Source: Candidatus Tectimicrobiota bacterium
Lineage (GTDB): Bacteria; JACPUC01
Assembly (NCBI GenBank): GCA_016192455.1
Contig: JACPUC010000026.1
Location: 78,902-142,901, forward strand
Direction of reading: 5' to 3'
DNA: 64,000 bases
A model generated the notes under the pieces. The model searched no databases and was not told the origin of the DNA. It saw nothing but the letters and a program-made list of their open reading frames with translations. Positions 12,405-47,467 of the stretch are shown here, piece by piece; position 1 is the stretch's first letter; each line of letters opens with the position of its first letter. The translations under genes were made by a program, and so were the position numbers.

Positions 12405-13129
12405 TGGCAAGCCGCGCGGCACGCCCCCTTGCGACTCGCTGGGAGCGGAGGCTGCGAAGCGTCTCGACCTGGATTGCCCTGCTGCTGGCGCTTGGGGTGG
12501 GACAGAGCGCCGCCCTGGCGCTGCTCCTGGAGCGCGCGCCCGGCGGCGGCGGGGACTGGCGCCAGGTGGGGAACGCCTCGGAAGGCGTGGGCCCGCTGGG
12601 GGCAACGCCATCGCTCGCGCAGCAGCGGCAGCGGCCCTTCCCCGATGTCTACTACCACGCCGACAAGGTCATCCGCTTCAGGCTTGGCGCGGGTTCGCTG
12701 GCGCTCTTCAATGAGAAGGGGGAGCCCACCCGCGTCCACAATGATCCGCAGCAGGCGCTCGGGCCGCCTGATCACGGCCTGCAAGGCTGGCCGTACACCG
12801 GCGCGGTGTCGCTGGGAAACGGCGGCGAGATCATCCTCGGTTTCCCCACCTGCATCGAGGATGGCGAGGGAGACGATTTCATCGTGCACGAGATCGTCAC
12901 GCCGGAGCGCGCCGAGGTCTTCGGCAGCCTGACGCCGGAGCCGCGGGACTTCCGCCTCCTAGGCACCGCCAGCGGCACGACGCGCTTCGATCTTGCCGCC
13001 GCCGGCGTGCAGCGGGTCTACCTCATCAGGATCGTGGACCAGAACGACGTCCGCACCCCTTCGCCCTTTGCCGGCTTCGATGTGGACGCGGTGGAGGTGA
13101 TCCACCCGTGCCAGCCGTTCACGAGCTGA
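12404..13129 (+). CDS. hypothetical exported/membrane-anchored protein
   Basis: ATG overlaps the PRTase stop (TGATG) with a GGAGGA RBS. N-terminal TM/signal STWIALLLALGVGQSAALALLL. No family recognised. Confidence 0.5.
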   Translation: MASRAARPLATRWERRLRSVSTWIALLLALGVGQSAALALLLERAPGGGGDWRQVGNASEGVGPLGATPSLAQQRQRPFPDVYYHADKVIRFRLGAGSLALFNEKGEPTRVHNDPQQALGPPDHGLQGWPYTGAVSLGNGGEIILGFPTCIEDGEGDDFIVHEIVTPERAEVFGSLTPEPRDFRLLGTASGTTRFDLAAAGVQRVYLIRIVDQNDVRTPSPFAGFDVDAVEVIHPCQPFTS

Positions 13130-13210
13130 GCGCGGGCGCCGCAGGAGCCCATCGGCCAGCCGCCACCGCCGGCCTGGATGACTCATCACCCGTGCAGGGA
13201 GGAGCAGCGC

Positions 13211-27284: not shown

Positions 27285-28343
27285 TCAACCCTTCGGCCGC
27301 TTCCAGACGCCCCGCTCCTGCAGCCGGCGGGTGCTCTGGCGGTGAATCTCCTGGCGACCGGCGCGGCGCGGCGGGGGCTCGTGCAAAAAGAGGTTCTTGG
27401 GGAAGATCGGCTGCTCGTAGATGACCTTGTACTGTTCGGTGCGCAGGTCCTTCAGCCAATTGCCGAAAAGCGACTTGTCGCGGAAATCGCGCAGCGCCTC
27501 GATATCGACCATGGCGCTGCAGAAGGAGTCCGTCCCCGCGATGTGATGGGAGATCACTTCCCCCTTGTAGTCGCACATGATGGTGTTGCCGCCGGTGATG
27601 TCCCAGCCGTGCGGCGAGTCGGCGGTGATCATGCCGAGGGCCGGGTTGGGAGCGATGACGTAGCAGGTGTTGTCGAGGGCCCGCGTGCGCGCCCGCAGCT
27701 CGGACCAGCCGCGCCCCGCCCATGGCTCCACGTAGGTCGGCATGTAGATCACCTCGGCGCCGTTCATGGCCAGGCCGCGCGCCGTCTCCGGGAAGCTCTG
27801 ATCCATGCAGATGATGGTGCCGATGCGGCCGATCTCCGTGTCGCAGACGGGGTAGAAGGAGTCGAGGGAGTAGCCGAACTTCTCGATCCAGAGGTCCCAC
27901 ACGTCGTGGGGCACGGTGCTCGGCTCGTTCGGGTAGACCTGCAGCTTGTGGTACTTGTGGACGATCTTGCCCTTCGGGTCGATGACGAAGGCGAGGTTGA
28001 AGTAGCGATCCTCGATGATCTCCGCCTCGACGGCGCGAATCTGCCCGGCGATGAAGACGTTCAGCTCGCGGGCGATGTCGGCCAGGTAGTCCGTCTCGGG
28101 TCCGGGCACGGTGGTCATCAGCTCCTTGCAGGCGCGCACGTGGTCCCAGTCAAACATCGAGTCCGGGAACCCCTGGATGGCGCCCTCGGCGAAGCAGATG
28201 AGCTTCACGGGGTACTCGAGGCTGGCCAGCCAGTAACTGGCGCGGATGCCCTGGGCCAGGTGATCGAGGTTGCGCTTCATGTCGTCCCGACACTGGATGT
28301 TGAGGAACGTGCTCTGCACGGCAACAGCAGCGTAGCGGTCCAT
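27285..28343 (-). CDS. aliphatic amidase/formamidase (nitrilase superfamily, Cys in IICMDQSFPE)
   Basis: Similarity in pattern to AmiE (KIVHKYHKLQVYPNEP vs VQKYRKIIPW; IICMDQSFPE vs LIICDDGNYPE). Confidence 0.75.
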   Translation of the reverse strand: MDRYAAVAVQSTFLNIQCRDDMKRNLDHLAQGIRASYWLASLEYPVKLICFAEGAIQGFPDSMFDWDHVRACKELMTTVPGPETDYLADIARELNVFIAGQIRAVEAEIIEDRYFNLAFVIDPKGKIVHKYHKLQVYPNEPSTVPHDVWDLWIEKFGYSLDSFYPVCDTEIGRIGTIICMDQSFPETARGLAMNGAEVIYMPTYVEPWAGRGWSELRARTRALDNTCYVIAPNPALGMITADSPHGWDITGGNTIMCDYKGEVISHHIAGTDSFCSAMVDIEALRDFRDKSLFGNWLKDLRTEQYKVIYEQPIFPKNLFLHEPPPRRAGRQEIHRQSTRRLQERGVWKRPKG

Positions 28344-28569
28344 AGTGCTTCCCCCATCGAGCCAAGGTGGAAAACTCAGGCGCCCGGCGGCGCCGCGTTG
28401 AGGTTCACCTCAACGAAGCCGGTACTTGCGGCAGGCTCGAGCGCTCGCAAGGGGCCCGCGCGCCGCGGCGGCACTGAGCCGGCACTGGCTCACCCAGCGC
28501 CTCCCCCTGGAGGTCAGCCTCCCCGTGTAGTTGGAGATCACCGTACTGGCAGCGGGGTTCTAAAAAGGA

Positions 28570-30927
28570 TCAACCTTTTCCGTATCGCCATTGTATTTCA
28601 CCGCACTGACATTGCACCCACTCCGCGCTCTCAGCGTCGGCCAACCAAACTCCCCTGCGGCACGACGAACATATGAACGACTCAAGGGCTTTTTCACAGG
28701 CGTCAATCACCTTAACCGCTTCCTGGCGAACTAAATCGAGTGTGTGAGTTCCACGGTTGGCCCAGGACACAAGCAGCCTATCCGCTTTGTCAAGCGCGCC
28801 CGTCGCATCCGAATGGGCTACGTACTCCTGTCCCACCTTTTTCCGGAAGCACTTCTTCCCGTCCGCCACGAAGCGATCGAGAAAGTCGTGCGCTATACGT
28901 TTGTCATTCTTTTCGGCGCGAAGGTAAGGCAATCTGATTCGAAGGCGCTCAGCGATCAGTGCGAGCTCGACGTCCATGATTTTCCTGGCATCAGTTCCCG
29001 CCGAGTCAGGACGATCATTGAGCTGGGCACGAGCGTCGTCGAAGGTCGTCGTTTTGTGCGACCATCGAATACCAACCGTCGGCGTCTCATAGGGCAACAG
29101 GGTCTTAAAGGTCCAACTGTTGCCGTGAAGCTGCTGCCTAAGCTCTGTGTACCACTCACGATCATGTGTCAAGATCACCACCTGCCGCTTGGCGAACTCC
29201 TTCTCCAGCAGCTCTCTAATCATGCCTCTGTGATTCCGATCGAGACTAATAACCACATCATCGAGGAAAAGGGGTCTATCCATCTTGGCTTCGCGCTTAG
29301 CCATCGCTAAGAAGATACAGAGACCGAGGCTGTTTCTATAGCCCTCCGATAAGGTAAGCCTTGGCGATTCCTGTTCATGGCCGTGGAAGTTCAAGCCAAT
29401 ATCGATGGCTTTATCCACATCATTCGGAAAGTACAGGCGCACATTTTCGATTGGTTCTCCAGGGTGCAGGATAGACCACATTGATTGGATATCTACAGAG
29501 ATATCCTCAATCACCTTTTGTGACCGAAGTCTGATCTCCTCACGGACACCCTTTTCAAGCGAACTAACAAAATCTCTCAGAGCTTCAGCACGAGCCACTG
29601 CTGCCGCTTGCCCCTTACCCTCGATCACAGCTTTGCCCACCTCGACGGTCTGCCGGTCGGTCGAGAGCTGGCGGACATCGGGAGGCGCGTCCTCCCACGC
29701 CTTCCTTGCTAAATTGATCACCGGAAGCAGATTGGCCTCAAGTGTCTTGAGGTCTGCATCGTTGCAAGAGGTTCGAAGCACGTCCACGTTGAAGCTGTCC
29801 AAAAACGCAATCCGGTCAGCGAGCGGACCCTTGGTAATTTCGTCGCGCCAGGCCTTGATCGCGGGCTTTGAAAGGTTGGACTGGAGCGATTTACAGGTGT
29901 CACAGAGAGTCCCAACTTCTGCTTTGCGGGTATTGTAAACGTTGATGATTTTATGAAGCCGCTCGCGCTCCGACTTCAAGTGTGCCTGAAGGTTCTCCAA
30001 CGGAATGGCCCGTCCGCAGGCGGGACAATTGACTTCTTTTGCTTCTCCCAATTTGTCGAGGAACGTGACGGTCGTCTGCAACACCTCCAATTTCTCAGCG
30101 ATCAGAGGATCAACAGAGTCAGCAAACTTCATGCTAACCGAGCGCACGGCATCAATGCAATGCTTAAGGTTAATTTCGGCTACATCTTGGAGTGCGAAGT
30201 TCCTTCTCTGGTCGGCCAAGGAGCGGTCGATCCGCGTCTCCAGCTCCGCCTCCAACTCTTTGCAGCGAGATAGAGGGTCCTTCGTGGTGGCCTCGTTAGC
30301 GCAATACCTCGCGTGGAGTGTCGCTATCTTGCTGGCGATCTGGTCATCGTTGTCCGCACCAAATGTCGCCGCACGACTGTTCTTTATCCTCCCAAGCGCA
30401 ACCTTAGTGTCCTCAAACTTCGACTGTTGCGCTATCATCTTTGAGAGCTGCCGGAGGTTCTCGGCAGCAACCTCCATTTGGTGAAGTCCGAGGAGCGGAA
30501 GGAGGGTGGAGTACTTGTCTCCCTTAGTGTCGTGAATGAAGGCCGCAACCTCGTCCTGCCTCAGTACCGTGCGGTGGTATTCCCAAGTGGGCATCGCGAC
30601 GACCTCCGCACCGGAGCTTTTCGGAGAGCCGTCCGGCTTTATCTGGACCGTGAGCTCCGCGTCGTTTGTGAATGTGATCCTTAGTTCTGTCTTCCGGTCC
30701 CTCGGCTTATGTGTATTAGGTATGGCCTTCTCCTGGTGTTTCCCGCTGTACTCGTGTGAGAGATGACCAATCCTGCCATTGTGAAGAACGTACTCAACAG
30801 CATCGACGAAAGACGATTTTCCCGCTCCATTGTTTCCGTACACGACCATTGACTTGCTGTCGGGATCCAACGCCACTGGGTCGGCGGCACCCCGGAACCA
30901 CGACAGTTGGATGGACTTGATTCTCAC
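28570..30927 (-). CDS. Rad50/SbcC/RecF-like SMC-type ABC ATPase with coiled-coil zinc hook and novel C-terminal Zn-ribbon domain
   Basis: GTG start. N-lobe MRIKSIQLSWFRGA...VVYGNNGAGKSSFVDAVEYVL (Walker A). Hook-like CPACGRAIPLE...LCDTC in mid coiled coil. C-lobe LSEGYRNSLGL (signature), RPLFLDDVVISLD (Walker B/D-loop), VVILTHD (H-loop). Then ~190 aa unrecognised ending CSSCRRGVW...WVQCQCGEIQW. Confidence 0.8.
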   Translation of the reverse strand: MRIKSIQLSWFRGAADPVALDPDSKSMVVYGNNGAGKSSFVDAVEYVLHNGRIGHLSHEYSGKHQEKAIPNTHKPRDRKTELRITFTNDAELTVQIKPDGSPKSSGAEVVAMPTWEYHRTVLRQDEVAAFIHDTKGDKYSTLLPLLGLHQMEVAAENLRQLSKMIAQQSKFEDTKVALGRIKNSRAATFGADNDDQIASKIATLHARYCANEATTKDPLSRCKELEAELETRIDRSLADQRRNFALQDVAEINLKHCIDAVRSVSMKFADSVDPLIAEKLEVLQTTVTFLDKLGEAKEVNCPACGRAIPLENLQAHLKSERERLHKIINVYNTRKAEVGTLCDTCKSLQSNLSKPAIKAWRDEITKGPLADRIAFLDSFNVDVLRTSCNDADLKTLEANLLPVINLARKAWEDAPPDVRQLSTDRQTVEVGKAVIEGKGQAAAVARAEALRDFVSSLEKGVREEIRLRSQKVIEDISVDIQSMWSILHPGEPIENVRLYFPNDVDKAIDIGLNFHGHEQESPRLTLSEGYRNSLGLCIFLAMAKREAKMDRPLFLDDVVISLDRNHRGMIRELLEKEFAKRQVVILTHDREWYTELRQQLHGNSWTFKTLLPYETPTVGIRWSHKTTTFDDARAQLNDRPDSAGTDARKIMDVELALIAERLRIRLPYLRAEKNDKRIAHDFLDRFVADGKKCFRKKVGQEYVAHSDATGALDKADRLLVSWANRGTHTLDLVRQEAVKVIDACEKALESFICSSCRRGVWLADAESAEWVQCQCGEIQWRYGKG

Positions 30928-31178
30928 TCGTCCGCCTCCACCTTTGGCGGGACAGGCGCCATATCTTTGAGGAGTAAGTTGGCTAATTCAGTCAAATCAG
31001 TGGGACGAAGCTGACGCTTTCCGAGTTCATCTCTGATAAGCTCCCTCATCCGAATAGCAACGGCATCTGTCACGGTTGGATAGGCTTTCTGCGCATCGCC
31101 AACGCGCTTGGATATCCAGTTTTCCTCTCCTTCCACTGCCGTCGCCTCCCTGTTAGTCAAGCTGCCAGGAAAAGCCAC
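30924..31178 (-). CDS. small hypothetical protein (84 aa) translationally coupled to the ATPase (GTGA overlap)
   Basis: Its stop TGA (30926..30924) overlaps the GTG start (30927..30925) of the ATPase. Lies in the same low-GC island. Start uncertain (GTG, or internal Met MRELIRDELG). Confidence 0.4.
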   Translation of the reverse strand: MAFPGSLTNREATAVEGEENWISKRVGDAQKAYPTVTDAVAIRMRELIRDELGKRQLRPTDLTELANLLLKDMAPVPPKVEADE

Positions 31179-31234
31179 ATAGCATTCTCTAGCTTCTTGC
31201 TAAACACGGTCCTCACTGCGCAGCGCCAGCGTCA

Positions 31235-32362
31235 TCAGCTCCAGCCGTAGAAGCGCTTGGCGTTCGTGCAGAGAATCTTCTCCACCGCCACGGCGGAGAG
31301 GTCCTGCCGGGCGCGCAGCTCCTTCACGGCGTAGCGGTCGCGGTCGCCATGCGGCATGTCGGAGGCGAAGAGAATTTGGTCTTCGCCGACAAGCTGCAAT
31401 GCTTGCGGCAGGAGGTCGTCCTCGACCTCCGTGTTGAAGAAGAGGCGCCCGCCGGCGACGTACTCGGCGGCGCGCTCCGCCGCCACCGGCTTGGGGAGCG
31501 GCAGGAACTTCGCGATGGCGTTGAGGAAGGTGCGGCGATGATCGAGCCGGTGGGTCATGAAGTGAATCCATTCGCAGCCGGCCTCCATGAAGCCGATGCG
31601 CAGGTTCGGGAAGCGATCCAGGAGGTCGCTGGTGAGGATGGCCGCGAAGCCCATGAGGACCGGGAAGAGGAAGGCGATGACGGTCGAGGTGAGGAGATTG
31701 GGGGCCAAGCTGGAGAGTTGCGGGCTGGCCCAGCCGACGTGCAGCGCCACGGGCAGGTCCTGCGCCGCGACCTCTTCCCAGAACGGCAGCAGGCGCGGGT
31801 GGCTGAGCATGTCGTTGCCCGCCAGGCCCAGGAGCATGATGCCGCTGGCGTGCAGCTCCGTCTTCAGCCGACGCACCTCCGCCACCGCCGCGGAAACGTT
31901 ATCCAGCGGCATCACCCCCACCCAGCCGAAACGCTCGTCGCCGCCGCGCAGGTCGCACATCCAGTTGTTGTAGGCGCGGCAGAGGGCGGCCTGGAAGTCG
32001 GGATCGGCGGTGAGGGGATAGGCGAGGAAGAGGGTGGGGTAGAGAACCTGCACGTCGATGTTCTCGGCCTGCATGTCGGCGAAGCGCGCCGCGCGGTCGC
32101 GCAGCTCGAGGCTCTCCAGACTCTCCGGCTTGCCGCGGGTGAAGGGCGTCAGCTTGCCCTGGTAGTGGGCCGGCGTGCCGAGGTTCGAGGCGCCGGGACC
32201 ATGCCGGCGCGGCAGGGTCACATCATCGATGAGCCAAAACGCCTGCTCGAACGGTCCCGGAATGACCATGGGCCGTCGATTGCGGAAGCGCGGCTCCAGG
32301 TACGCGTCGCTGAAGGTTGCCTCGCACTCCTCGATGTGCGCGTCGGCGTCGATGACTTTCAT
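31235..32362 (-). CDS. amidohydrolase-2 family metal-dependent hydrolase (ACMSD-like TIM barrel)
   Basis: Internal Met MKVIDADAHIEE (HxH-type metal site) with GGGGAGG RBS. The upstream 61 codons of the track ORF are GC-rich read-in. Confidence 0.7.
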   Translation of the reverse strand: MKVIDADAHIEECEATFSDAYLEPRFRNRRPMVIPGPFEQAFWLIDDVTLPRRHGPGASNLGTPAHYQGKLTPFTRGKPESLESLELRDRAARFADMQAENIDVQVLYPTLFLAYPLTADPDFQAALCRAYNNWMCDLRGGDERFGWVGVMPLDNVSAAVAEVRRLKTELHASGIMLLGLAGNDMLSHPRLLPFWEEVAAQDLPVALHVGWASPQLSSLAPNLLTSTVIAFLFPVLMGFAAILTSDLLDRFPNLRIGFMEAGCEWIHFMTHRLDHRRTFLNAIAKFLPLPKPVAAERAAEYVAGGRLFFNTEVEDDLLPQALQLVGEDQILFASDMPHGDRDRYAVKELRARQDLSAVAVEKILCTNAKRFYGWS

Positions 32363-32638
32363 TCCATTGCCTCCCCGCGCCCAGGAGCGCGCGGCTGCCA
32401 CCGGGCCCTCCCTGCGCCGCCGGCCGCGCGGAGAGGCTTCTCCCCCCGCGCCCGGCCGGCCTCCCCGCCGCACCGACGGCCCCCCGCGCTGCCGCCGGCC
32501 GCGCCGGAGGCCATCAGGGTTATTCCTGGAACGTGAAATGACCAAAAAGACGGTCCGCTACCTTGCCTAAGCCGCAACATCCCACCTGGCGCGCGCTTTT
32601 GGACCATTTCCCGAGGAGCTGCGTTCGCCTGGTTGTCC

Positions 32639-43728: not shown

Positions 43729-44763
43729 ATGAAAGCAGTTGTCATCCACGAGCACGGCGACCCGGAGGTCCTGAAGGAAGAGGAGTACCCAACACCGCAA
43801 CTCGGCCCCGAAGACGTGCTGGTGAAGGTGAAGGCGTGCGGCGTCAACCAGGCAGACTTGATGATCCGACGCGGCGACGTGCGCATGTATCCCAAGCTGC
43901 CCCACATCCTCGGTAGCGAGATCTCCGGCGTCGTCCACAGCGTCGGCAGCGCGGTGACGCAGTGGAAGGGGGGAGAGCGGGTCATCGTCTACCCCGGATT
44001 CGGCTGCGGGCACTGCGAGTTCTGCGTCAAGGGGCATCTCTATAGCTGCAATACCTACAAGTACTTCGGCACCCAGATGCAGGGGACTTACTCGGAGTTC
44101 GTGAAGGCTCCCTGGTACAACATGGTCCCCCTGCCGGAAGAAGTCTCCTTCGTGGAAGGGGCTGCCATCCCCATGGTGATGCTCACCTCGTGGCACATGG
44201 TGGTGGACCAGGCGAACGTGCGGCCCGGCGAGATCGTCCTGGTGCACGCCGCCGGTAGCGGCATCGGCTCGGCCTCGATCCAGATCGCCAAGCTCTGCGG
44301 CGCCACCGTCATCGCCACCGCCGGCTCCGACGACAAGGAGGAGCTGGCCAGAAGCCTCGGCGCCTCGCACTTCATCAACTACCGCAAGACCGACTTCCGC
44401 GAAGAGGTGGGGAAGATCACCAACAAGCGCGGCGTGGATGTGGTCATCGAGCACACCGGCGAGTTCACCTGGGACAAGAGCGTGCGCTCGCTGGTGAAGC
44501 ACGGCCGCCTCGTCGTCTGCGGCGCCACCTCGGGGCATAACGGCTACACGGATATCCGCTACGTCTACTACAAGCACCTCAACATCATCGGCTCGACGCT
44601 GGGCACCATCGAGAACCTGAAGCACGCGCTGCAGTATGTCGCCGCGGGCCGCATCCGCACCGTGGTCGATCGGGTCTATCCCATCAGCGAGGTGCGCAAG
44701 GCGCACGAGATCATGGAAGCCCGCCAGAACAAGGGCAAGCAGGTGCTGCAGATGTGGGACTAG
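43729..44763 (+). CDS. zinc-binding MDR-family alcohol dehydrogenase/quinone oxidoreductase
   Basis: MKAVVIHEHGDPEVL...GSEISGVV...GCGHCEFCVKGHLYSC (structural Zn Cys cluster), AAGSGIGS Rossmann. Confidence 0.85.
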   Translation: MKAVVIHEHGDPEVLKEEEYPTPQLGPEDVLVKVKACGVNQADLMIRRGDVRMYPKLPHILGSEISGVVHSVGSAVTQWKGGERVIVYPGFGCGHCEFCVKGHLYSCNTYKYFGTQMQGTYSEFVKAPWYNMVPLPEEVSFVEGAAIPMVMLTSWHMVVDQANVRPGEIVLVHAAGSGIGSASIQIAKLCGATVIATAGSDDKEELARSLGASHFINYRKTDFREEVGKITNKRGVDVVIEHTGEFTWDKSVRSLVKHGRLVVCGATSGHNGYTDIRYVYYKHLNIIGSTLGTIENLKHALQYVAAGRIRTVVDRVYPISEVRKAHEIMEARQNKGKQVLQMWD

Positions 44764-46555: not shown

Positions 46556-47467
46556 ATGACCCTCCCATCCAGCGTCAGCATTGTCGAGGTGGGGCCGCGC
46601 GACGGTTTGCAGGGAGAGGCGCGGCACGTCGCCACCGCCGACAAGATCGCCCTCATCAACCGCCTGAGCGCCTGCGGCCTGCGGCGCCTCGAGGTGTCGT
46701 CGTTCGTCAGCGCCAAGGCCATCCCGCAGCTTGCCGACGCGGCCGAGGTGCTGGCCGGCATCGAGCGCGCCCCGGGCGCGCGCTACAGCGTTCTGGTGGC
46801 GAACGAGCGCGGCTACGAGAGCGCCGCGGCGGCGGGCGCCGACGAGGTGGCCGTCTTCCTGTCGGCCAGCGAGGCCCACAACCAGCTCAACGTCGGCAAG
46901 AGCATCGCGGACACCCTGGCGAAGCTGCGGCCGGTGGCGCGGCGGGCGGCGGCGGACGGGGTGCCGGTGCGCGGCTACGTCTCCACGGTCTTCGGCTGCT
47001 CCCTCGCCGGCAAGGTGGAGGCGGCGCGGGTGGAGCGCATCTGCGGCGAGCTTGCCGACATGGGGGTGGGGGAAATCTCGCTGGGGGACACCATCGGCGT
47101 GGCGCACCCGCCGCAGGTTCAGGCCATGATCGAGGGGCTGCGCGCGCGGCTTGGCGACCTGCCACTGGCGCTGCATCTCCACGATACCCTCGGGCGCGGG
47201 CTGGCGAACGTCTGGGCGGGATTGCAGGCGGGGATTCGCGTCTTCGACAGCTCGGTCGGCGGGCTGGGAGGCTGCCCCAATACGCCGGGAGGGGCCGGCA
47301 ACATCGCCACGGAGGACCTCGTGAGCCTGCTGCGGGCCATGGGCATCGCCTGCGGCGTGGAGGAGGAGGCGATCCGCGCGGTGGCGCGCTTCGCGGCGTC
47401 GCTCGTCGATCACCCCCTGGCCAGCCACTGCGCTTACGCCGGCGGCACCGCGGAGGAGAGAGCGTGA
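46556..47467 (+). CDS. hydroxymethylglutaryl-CoA lyase
   Basis: SIVEVGPRDGLQ..., DTIGVAHP, LHLHDTLG, GGLGGCP motifs. Confidence 0.85.
   Translation: MTLPSSVSIVEVGPRDGLQGEARHVATADKIALINRLSACGLRRLEVSSFVSAKAIPQLADAAEVLAGIERAPGARYSVLVANERGYESAAAAGADEVAVFLSASEAHNQLNVGKSIADTLAKLRPVARRAAADGVPVRGYVSTVFGCSLAGKVEAARVERICGELADMGVGEISLGDTIGVAHPPQVQAMIEGLRARLGDLPLALHLHDTLGRGLANVWAGLQAGIRVFDSSVGGLGGCPNTPGGAGNIATEDLVSLLRAMGIACGVEEEAIRAVARFAASLVDHPLASHCAYAGGTAEERA

Follow-up and report, generated by a model that had tools for sequence, protein, structure and literature searches.

A mobile two-gene cassette encoding a Rad50/LmuB-like ATPase with a C-terminal HEPN domain in a Tectimicrobiota contig, a putative abortive-infection module and candidate cousin of RloC and PrrC

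A stretch of 64,000 nucleotides (nt) from a Candidatus Tectimicrobiota bacterium (assembly GCA_016192455.1, contig JACPUC010000026.1, positions 78,902 to 142,901 of the forward strand; hereafter the window) contains on its minus strand a compact cassette of two coupled genes, one for a protein of 70 amino acids (aa) and one for a 785-aa ATPase of the Rad50/LmuB type that ends in a HEPN domain and a zinc ribbon. Our reading, held with slightly more belief than doubt, is that the cassette represents a self-contained and horizontally mobile two-gene ABC-HEPN module of the abortive-infection type. Judged by analogy, it is most likely an uncharacterised cousin of the anticodon nucleases RloC and PrrC that serves in phage defence through abortive infection. 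The ABC-HEPN architecture itself, of the RloC-like kind, is known; what is new is the specific family, which combines a classical, DUF4145-like HEPN domain and a zinc ribbon with a partner that is obligate across deep clades. The cassette and its genes lie as follows:

28520..31215, minus strand: low-GC foreign cassette of about 2.7 kb, seen in the GC content and in the GC content of third codon positions (GC3), with approximate boundaries read from the sequence
31145..31150, minus strand: ribosome-binding site GGGAGG, 8 nt before the GTG of the small gene, read from the sequence
30924..31136, minus strand: small partner gene, 70 aa, with a GTG start at 31136 and a TGA that overlaps the GTG of the ATPase gene (GTGA)
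28570..30927, minus strand: gene for the 785-aa Rad50/LmuB-like ABC ATPase with HEPN domain and zinc ribbon, from its open reading frame (ORF) and domain analysis

An earlier note on this DNA, made from the sequence alone, had recognised a head of the SMC/Rad50 type in the large protein, and all of its motifs were located: Walker A at residue 31, LSEGY at 526, LFLDDVVISLD at 553 and THD at 587-589. Conservation in the ATPase family was read from an alignment of 60 sequences (A3), and the structure of the ATPase-HEPN protein is that of an AlphaFold 2 (AF2) model. The features of the ATPase part are:

30811..30837, minus strand: Walker A/P-loop GNNGAGKSS, residues 31-39, with G36 and K37 invariant in A3
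29458..30480, minus strand: antiparallel coiled-coil insert, approximately residues 150-490, from the AF2 model
30013..30027, minus strand: zinc hook C301-P-A-C304-G305 at the apex of the coiled coil, with C301, P302 and C304 invariant
29338..29352, minus strand: ABC signature LSEGY, residues 526-530, with L526, S527 and E528 invariant
29239..29271, minus strand: Walker B and D-loop LFLDDVVISLD, residues 553-563, with D556, D557, S561 and D563 invariant
29164..29166, minus strand: H-loop His588, with T587 and H588 invariant

The coiled coil is modelled as two long helices (residues 150-291 and 310-487) with values of the predicted local distance difference test (pLDDT) of 80-92, and a beta-hairpin is placed at residues 298-309. 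Of the two cysteine pairs from which a zinc hook had been proposed, CPAC at residue 301 is conserved (C301-P-x-C304-G305, with G305 conserved to at least 90%), whereas the second, CDTC, is not. The sequence CPxCG is the hook of the LmuB type (PMC10586767). The Walker B motif reads LFLDD, and the catalytic Glu is therefore replaced by an invariant Asp (Asp557). The pattern hhhhDD is the Walker B consensus of the LmuB proteins of long Lamassu systems (PMC12663957), and it is also found in the AAA_13-type proteins that we recovered.

Profile searches place the first three quarters of the protein, and only these, among known families: in Pfam, the best coverage is given by SMC_N (E 5e-18, residues 3-598), with AAA_15 and AAA_23 also matching in the N-lobe, and AAA_13 is confined to the C-lobe at residues 459-603 (E 1e-12; 47.9 bits against a cut-off of 36), while residues 600-785 have no Pfam match. 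The top matches in PADLOC are two models of Lamassu LmuB (PDLC03865, E 1.3e-27; PDLC03859, E 5.7e-24; residues 122-592), and LmuB is the top match for all distant clades of the family too. The next PADLOC matches, mad3 and PDC-S06, are likewise confined to the ATPase part, and PrrC matches the C-lobe of the ATPase weakly (E 5e-6). An identity with PDC-S06 was considered and rejected, as its models match the ATPase part only. A search of the family profile against the Protein Data Bank (PDB) returned Rad50 and SMC heads only. As the earlier note anticipated, no model in the defence libraries recognises the module as a whole, and the coverage by PADLOC is restricted to the ATPase part.

The C-terminal domain, in which the earlier note could recognise no nuclease, is a HEPN fold, that is, a four-helix up-down bundle of a nuclease-type fold, and is a putative RNase. 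Its conservation was read from an alignment of 59 sequences (A2), and the invariance calls cover sequences down to 29% identity. The features of this part are:

28678..29043, minus strand: HEPN-fold domain, approximately residues 629-750, with four core helices and a beta-hairpin insert
28885..28899, minus strand: R677-x3-D681 ('NDxRxxx[D/E]'), a candidate catalytic or RNA-binding pair, with N674 invariant and R677 conserved to at least 90% (A2/A3)
28744..28758, minus strand: N724-R-G-T727-H728, the candidate HEPN catalytic His motif, with H728 invariant and N724 conserved to at least 90%
28603..28671, minus strand: Cys4 zinc ribbon C753-x2-C756...C773-x-C775, with C753, C756 and C773 invariant and C775 conserved to at least 90%

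To these invariant residues the C-domain adds R648 and W780, and D652 and E736 are further positions with at least 90% conservation. A second R-x3-D pair (R648/D652) is thus present besides R677/D681, and both the invariant R648 and the highly conserved R677 are situated on other helices than the His motif, as in PrrC and RloC. The catalytic triad of RloC and PrrC is Arg-X3-Glu-X36-52-(Ser)His (PMC2610378). Here, a Ser or Thr precedes H728, which lies 46 residues beyond D681 and thereby inside the X36-52 spacing of RloC, so that R677-x3-[D/E]681-x46-[S/T]727-H728 matches the RloC triad on pattern alone. R725, within the His motif, is not invariant (R/K/P/A/S/L). Sub-threshold matches to DUF4145, which is a HEPN family (PMC3710099), were obtained for 16 of the 59 members, the best at E 0.003 and still short of the gathering score, and one member matched both DUF4145 and HEPN_MAE_28990 (E 0.12), in both cases over the His motif and the next helix.

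The terminal ribbon of four cysteines (Cys 753/756/773/775) that the earlier note described is present. This region is modelled as beta strands and gives weak matches to zinc-ribbon families in Pfam, including DUF1922 and Zn_ribbon_LysW, and the Cys4 ribbon is present in all distant clades and absent from the tails of the AAA_13/RloC-type proteins. Its role may be RNA binding, or else oligomerisation or contact with the trigger, much as for the zinc-finger domain of RAZR. In an 834-aa homologue (P0103), a low-complexity insertion of 49 aa (A1 columns 709-757) was observed in the beta-hairpin between HEPN helices 2 and 3, and the surface loop of the HEPN domain therefore tolerates large insertions.

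The two genes are obligately linked. An ORF of 66-73 aa adjoins or overlaps the start of the ATPase gene in 17 of the 17 family loci with upstream DNA; the partner was recovered with a hidden Markov model in L001-L012, L014, L019, L022 and L027, and weakly in L016, and it was identified from gene calls in L104-L107. The overlap between stop and start codons is GTGA at 30924-30927 in the window, which confirms the coupled two-gene module of the earlier note, and amounts to 1-11 nt in other loci. The small protein had been taken to be 84 aa long; its actual length is 70 aa, with the GTG at 31136 behind GGGAGG, because the Met starts of the homologues and the call made by NCBI itself (P0286) agree on it. 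A purine-rich ribosome-binding site is also found at the equivalent position in homologous loci.

In sequence, the partner gave zero matches in Pfam, PADLOC (E<=1), NCBIfam, PHROGs and the PDB, and a database search recovered 39 homologues, nearly all of 66-73 aa, none of them fused to another protein or carrying a Pfam domain. W7 is invariant in an alignment of the small partner (A4), and the protein is neutral to acidic and described as helical. It is under purifying selection, with a median ratio of nonsynonymous to synonymous substitution rates (dN/dS) of 0.41 over 87 pairs, as compared with 0.18 for the ATPase, and it diverges faster, with identities of 27-46% as compared with 61-72% for the ATPase. 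Within 4 kb of the cassette, no further gene was found to be conserved at 15 independent loci, and the cassette is therefore an autonomous two-gene unit.

The cassette in the window was acquired horizontally and is of foreign origin. When 2.7-kb windows were compared across the whole 64 kb (mean GC 0.674, standard deviation 0.033), the cassette had the lowest GC content of all (0.540), and GC values of 0.51-0.56 across positions 28500-31250 stand against 0.65-0.72 on either side, by which the block is distinguished from its flanks, as the earlier note had foreseen for an island of low GC. The GC3 values are 0.63 for the ATPase gene and 0.54 for the small gene, clearly below the 0.85-0.93 of six neighbouring genes. 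In other loci the GC content of the cassette equals that of the flanks, and the strong dip observed here is therefore the mark of a recent acquisition. Among the signatures of mobility that were sought around the cassette, there is no adjacent tRNA and no integrase, and flanking repeats are at chance level only.

The family is broad. Clusters at 50% identity that contain the C-domain number at least 163, of 1.84 billion representatives, and come from several phyla; among the best 150 matches listed, nearly all full-length carriers are of about 770-800 aa and have the domain at the C-terminal end. Members at 56-72% identity come from Tectomicrobia (this window, P0001) and Anaerolineales (L001), and a homologue of the partner gene is annotated in a metagenome-assembled genome of Eisenbacteria. 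Relatives at 21-26% identity (L025-L036, L040, L044 and the viral fragment L087) keep the CP[LMA]C hook, 'LDDV', THD/E, the terminal Cys4 and an upstream ORF of 53-75 aa. Some of the distant relatives (clade B) also keep 'N[DE]xRMxxE ... SHD', and others have a variant: in L030, L032, L036, L038-L040, L044 and L109 (5998-8451, a Sphingomonas plasmid), 'N..VHYNxWAN' stands in place of 'SH', with the hook, LDD, Cys4 and small partner kept. The HEPN site of this clade may be a variant, or it may have lost its activity.

Two-gene modules of the same layout were thus found in other genomes, and they recur as a mobile cassette, often beside genes of defence or mobile elements. The neighbourhoods differ entirely between loci. 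The cassette is mobile. Further neighbours include IS66 with DruA and an AAA_15 ATPase, HicAB with an MTase-Mrr, AbiEi_4 with AAA_14, the helicase-nuclease DUF4011/MTES_1575, IS481, and PIN. In one contig region (L002, 3166-15605, shared with L003 and L007), the cassette is located inside a clear defence island, with an SNF2 helicase and DUF2130 upstream and HEPN_AbiV together with a type III restriction-modification system (N6_N4_Mtase and ResIII) downstream. On plasmids, and also among the relatives at 21-26% identity, a pair of 73 aa and 798 aa was identified in Brucella anthropi OAB beside repA/repB and IS21 (DR92_RS00815/RS00810), and a pair of 53 aa and 817 aa in Sphingomonas aliaeris (H5J25_RS20045/RS20040), both annotated as hypothetical or as 'AAA family ATPase'. 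On the former (plasmid 1; L108, 1014-3214 and 8494-12776), the pair is situated about 1 kb from repA/repB, followed by a recombinase and IS21, a position that is compatible with plasmid maintenance or with plasmid-borne defence.

The earlier note held that the combination of domains matched nothing known, which is wrong because this is an ABC-HEPN (RloC-like) architecture with an LmuB-like ATPase: RloC itself is a zinc-hook coiled-coil ABC ATPase with a C-terminal HEPN domain (PMC2610378, PMC3710099). ABC-HEPN fusions have arisen several times independently, in PrrC, RloC, APECO1_4465 and ERFG_01251 (PMC3710099), and the anticodon nuclease activity of RloC is under the control of its zinc hook and of a DNA-dependent ATPase (PMC3458546, PMC3874168). 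RloC and PrrC can therefore be taken as precedents (PMC2610378, PMC3458546, PMC3710099). PrrC joins an N-terminal ABC ATPase domain to a C-terminal RNase of the HEPN class, and its toxin is latent and released on infection. However, PrrC has about 400 aa, lacks a coiled-coil/zinc-hook insert and is silenced within a type Ic restriction-modification system, whereas the protein studied here has 785 aa, a coiled coil of 340 residues and no adjacent hsd genes. A Cys4 zinc ribbon and a DUF4145 HEPN domain are combined in the abortive-infection RNase RAZR (PMC13017515), which is activated by assembly around rings of phage proteins; there, in contrast, the ribbon is N-terminal to the HEPN domain, and there is no ATPase, coiled coil or partner gene. 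Identities with RAZR and with DARNA were considered and rejected, as the architectures differ.

In Lamassu, the SMC-like LmuB senses ends of double-stranded DNA and replication origins, with a slow ATP turnover and a divergent Walker B motif, and the effector is activated by oligomerisation (PMC12663957), and the active site of HEPN enzymes in general is a composite one that arises when they dimerise (PMC13017515; bioRxiv 10.64898/2026.02.22.705581). By analogy with Lamassu, the module probably senses DNA ends, with abortive infection as the outcome. One hypothesis is that the ATPase would dimerise via the zinc hook and the ATP-engaged heads and monitor DNA ends or intermediates of phage replication, like Rad50, LmuB and RloC. 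In the resting state, such dimers might keep the HEPN domains inactive, either separated from each other or covered, and the small partner could function as an inhibitor, adaptor or latch. DNA structures or proteins of the phage could then serve as the trigger upon which the heads and the coiled coil rearrange, accompanied by a slow ATP turnover (Walker B DD), so that two HEPN domains would form a composite active site. The active RNase may then cut tRNA or other RNA, and the resulting arrest of translation would abort the infection. More tentatively, and with rather more doubt than belief, the module could be seen as the prototype of an unnamed, widespread two-component anti-phage system that bridges Lamassu and RloC, in which a Rad50/LmuB-like sensor of DNA ends or replication would be wired to a DUF4145-type HEPN RNase domain and a ribbon, with the rapidly evolving 70-aa partner as a latch that responds to infection, either an antitoxin or decoy or a minimal clamp resembling LmuC or the Rad50-binding domain (RBD) of Mre11. 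The defence hypothesis put forward in the earlier note is, in this light, a reasonable one.

Several observations weigh against the reading of the cassette as an abortive-infection module. The neighbours of the cassette in the window are metabolic and not defence genes, and upstream of it there is no sigma-70-like promoter, conserved operator or other conserved element. The canonical Rx4-6H spacing of HEPN domains is absent, the motif being N-R-x-S/T-H (Rx2H); every HEPN match in Pfam falls below the gathering threshold, and a Foldseek search of the C-domain against the PDB returned nothing significant. The head of the ATPase is modelled at low confidence (pLDDT 40-60). Between clades, the partners have no detectable homology (hhalign probability <10%), a search of GenBank phages was empty, and one of IMG/VR gave no close homologue.

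Among the alternatives, we consider it unlikely that the protein is nothing more than a divergent RloC. The published description of RloC comprises ABC motifs, a coiled-coil/CXXC insert, a C-terminal triad and a length of 658-897 aa (PMC2610378), and at the pattern level our protein has invariant ABC motifs, a CXXC hook at the apex of the coiled coil, the pattern Arg-X3-acidic-X46-(S/T)His and 785 aa. It is, like RloC, a single polypeptide of about 800 aa with an ABC head split by the coiled coil and a C-terminal RNase region of the HEPN class, and it shares the Walker B 'LDD', the 'SLD' D-loop, the GTG start and a patchy, mobile distribution. The AAA_13 score exceeds its cut-off, and 'LDDxxxSLD..HR' resembles the AAA_13-type proteins. 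The protein would thus resemble RloC in its working, but membership in the RloC family is not demonstrable. AAA_13 covers only the C-lobe, whereas the N-lobe is LmuB/SMC_N-like and not AAA_13-like, being found by SMC_N, AAA_15, AAA_23 and LmuB; the weak HEPN matches are of the classical type (DUF4145, MAE_28990) and not of the PrrC/RloC type; the terminal Cys4 ribbon is an extra element, and so is the coupled 70-aa partner, an obligate small partner being no described feature of RloC. For comparison with RloC we used AAA_13-type zinc-hook proteins among the fetched loci, which are not authentic GkaRloC (L091, L092, L098, L099 and L068, from metagenome and viral scans; AAA_13 E 5e-17 to 3e-25). 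An hhalign comparison of the 59-sequence C-domain profile with eight AAA_13-type tails, a shallow comparator profile, gave a probability of 0.1%. Comparators on viral contigs have 800-890 aa, and the comparator tails read 'LRLAWERxVEEV ... SKFxHD', with no terminal Cys4. That AAA_13 does not match the tail is uninformative in itself, because the alignment to this model breaks off near position 583 of 713 in strong members as well. Four of these comparators are located on viral or prophage contigs of IMG/VR (L091, 23-2428; L092, 4093-6738; L098, 3831-6479; L099, 4117-6789).

A type II-like toxin-antitoxin or addiction module, in which a labile small protein would neutralise a HEPN toxin and the pair would stabilise plasmids or islands instead of sensing phages, also seems improbable to us, although the layout is classic for such modules, with a small gene placed upstream and its stop codon overlapping the toxin start, the partner is a fast-evolving, neutral to acidic protein that lacks detectable homology across clades, and the cassettes are small, mobile and autonomous, with copies on plasmids, one of them beside repA/repB (Brucella anthropi). 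HEPN toxins are, moreover, common in toxin-antitoxin systems (PMC3710099). Yet an elaborate Rad50-like ATPase of 600 aa with a conserved hook would be unexpected for a simple addiction toxin, and there is no conserved operator upstream. This alternative overlaps with the abortive-infection reading, because many modules of this kind serve defence. With still less conviction, one may think of a derivative of Lamassu in reduced form: LmuB would carry its effector in cis on the same chain, and the role of a minimal subunit resembling LmuC or the Rad50-binding domain of Mre11, which clamps the base of the coiled coil, would fall to the 70-aa protein. LmuB is the top PADLOC match for the protein and for all distant clades, a small accessory gene is present in the operon, the CPxCG hook and the short coiled coils (about 20 nm) are as in Lamassu (PMC10586767), the Walker B is the hhhhDD of long Lamassu, and loss or remodelling of components is reported for Lamassu lineages (PMC12663957). 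However, LmuA and LmuC genes are both missing, so this is not Lamassu: there is no separate LmuA-type effector and no C-terminal domain of LmuA, the HEPN domain is instead fused to the ATPase, and the 70-aa protein has 0 matches to LmuC models in PADLOC and lies upstream, opposite to the 'middle component' position of LmuC. Furthermore, the LmuB matches end before the C-domain, and HEPN is not among the effector domains of LmuA in PMC10586767 and is not named in PMC12663957. That the protein could be a housekeeping ATPase for DNA repair, of the SbcC, RecN or RecF type, is suggested by the names 'SbcCD ATPase subunit' and 'RecF', among others, in source annotations and by weak NCBIfam matches, but these lie far under the cut-offs (RecF 39 vs 172, SbcC 17 vs 478, Rad50 28 vs 1000). 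Unlike in Rad50/SbcC, the coiled coil is much shorter, an Asp replaces the catalytic Glu, the protein includes a fused RNase-type HEPN domain, and there is no SbcD/Mre11 partner in the neighbourhood; the gene is mobile and patchily distributed, its composition is foreign, and its neighbourhoods vary without synteny. A placement in a housekeeping family, which the earlier note had named as the outcome that would overturn its proposal, did not occur, and this explanation is effectively refuted.

Around the cassette, the genes on the same strand are a CN_hydrolase (27285-28343) and an Amidohydro_2 gene (31235-32362), which are part of a catabolic cluster that also contains Amidohydro_3, PNPOx, CMD and UbiD. 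On an unrelated contig (L004, 6414-11792; flank GC 0.585), the cassette is placed among Amidohydro_2 paralogues, as in the window; this shared setting may reflect chance or joint movement of the cassette with a catabolic island. One further element was noted close to the ATPase gene:

28379..28394, minus strand: terminator-like GC hairpin with a T-run, 175 nt 3' of the ATPase stop, from a consensus scan only

This hairpin, just before the start of CN_hydrolase, may be part of the host flank, and the number of terminator-like sites in the window, by the consensus scan, is not above the shuffled expectation. A scan of the whole window at the Rfam gathering thresholds gave zero families, tRNA included, and there is therefore no evidence for an RNA antitoxin or a retron noncoding RNA. 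ARAGORN called three tRNAs in the window, Leu-cag at 13081-13166 (86 nt), Gly-acc at 44197-44290 (94 nt) and Pro-cgg at 46738-46835 (98 nt), of which the two long calls (Gly-acc and Pro-cgg) are probably false positives. Long antisense ORFs of 395-444 aa (27342-28676 and 31349-32536 on the plus strand, and similar ones) overlie real genes of the minus strand; they are not genes and are typical of high-GC DNA.

ATPases of the ABC/SMC-like type form the sensor core of many defence systems, among them Lamassu, RloC, PrrC, Septu, Gabija and PARIS, and how the sensing of DNA is coupled to the effector is only now being solved, for Lamassu. The family described here represents a minimal case, in which the putative sensor and RNase effector reside in one polypeptide with a single tiny partner, and the coupling of a Rad50-like head and coiled coil to the activation of a HEPN domain would thereby become directly testable. 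Current annotation is blind to it: neither the C-domain nor the partner has a model in Pfam, PADLOC or NCBIfam, and the records name the proteins 'AAA family ATPase', 'SbcC', 'RecF' or hypothetical. The plasmid homologues in cultured strains make experiments feasible.

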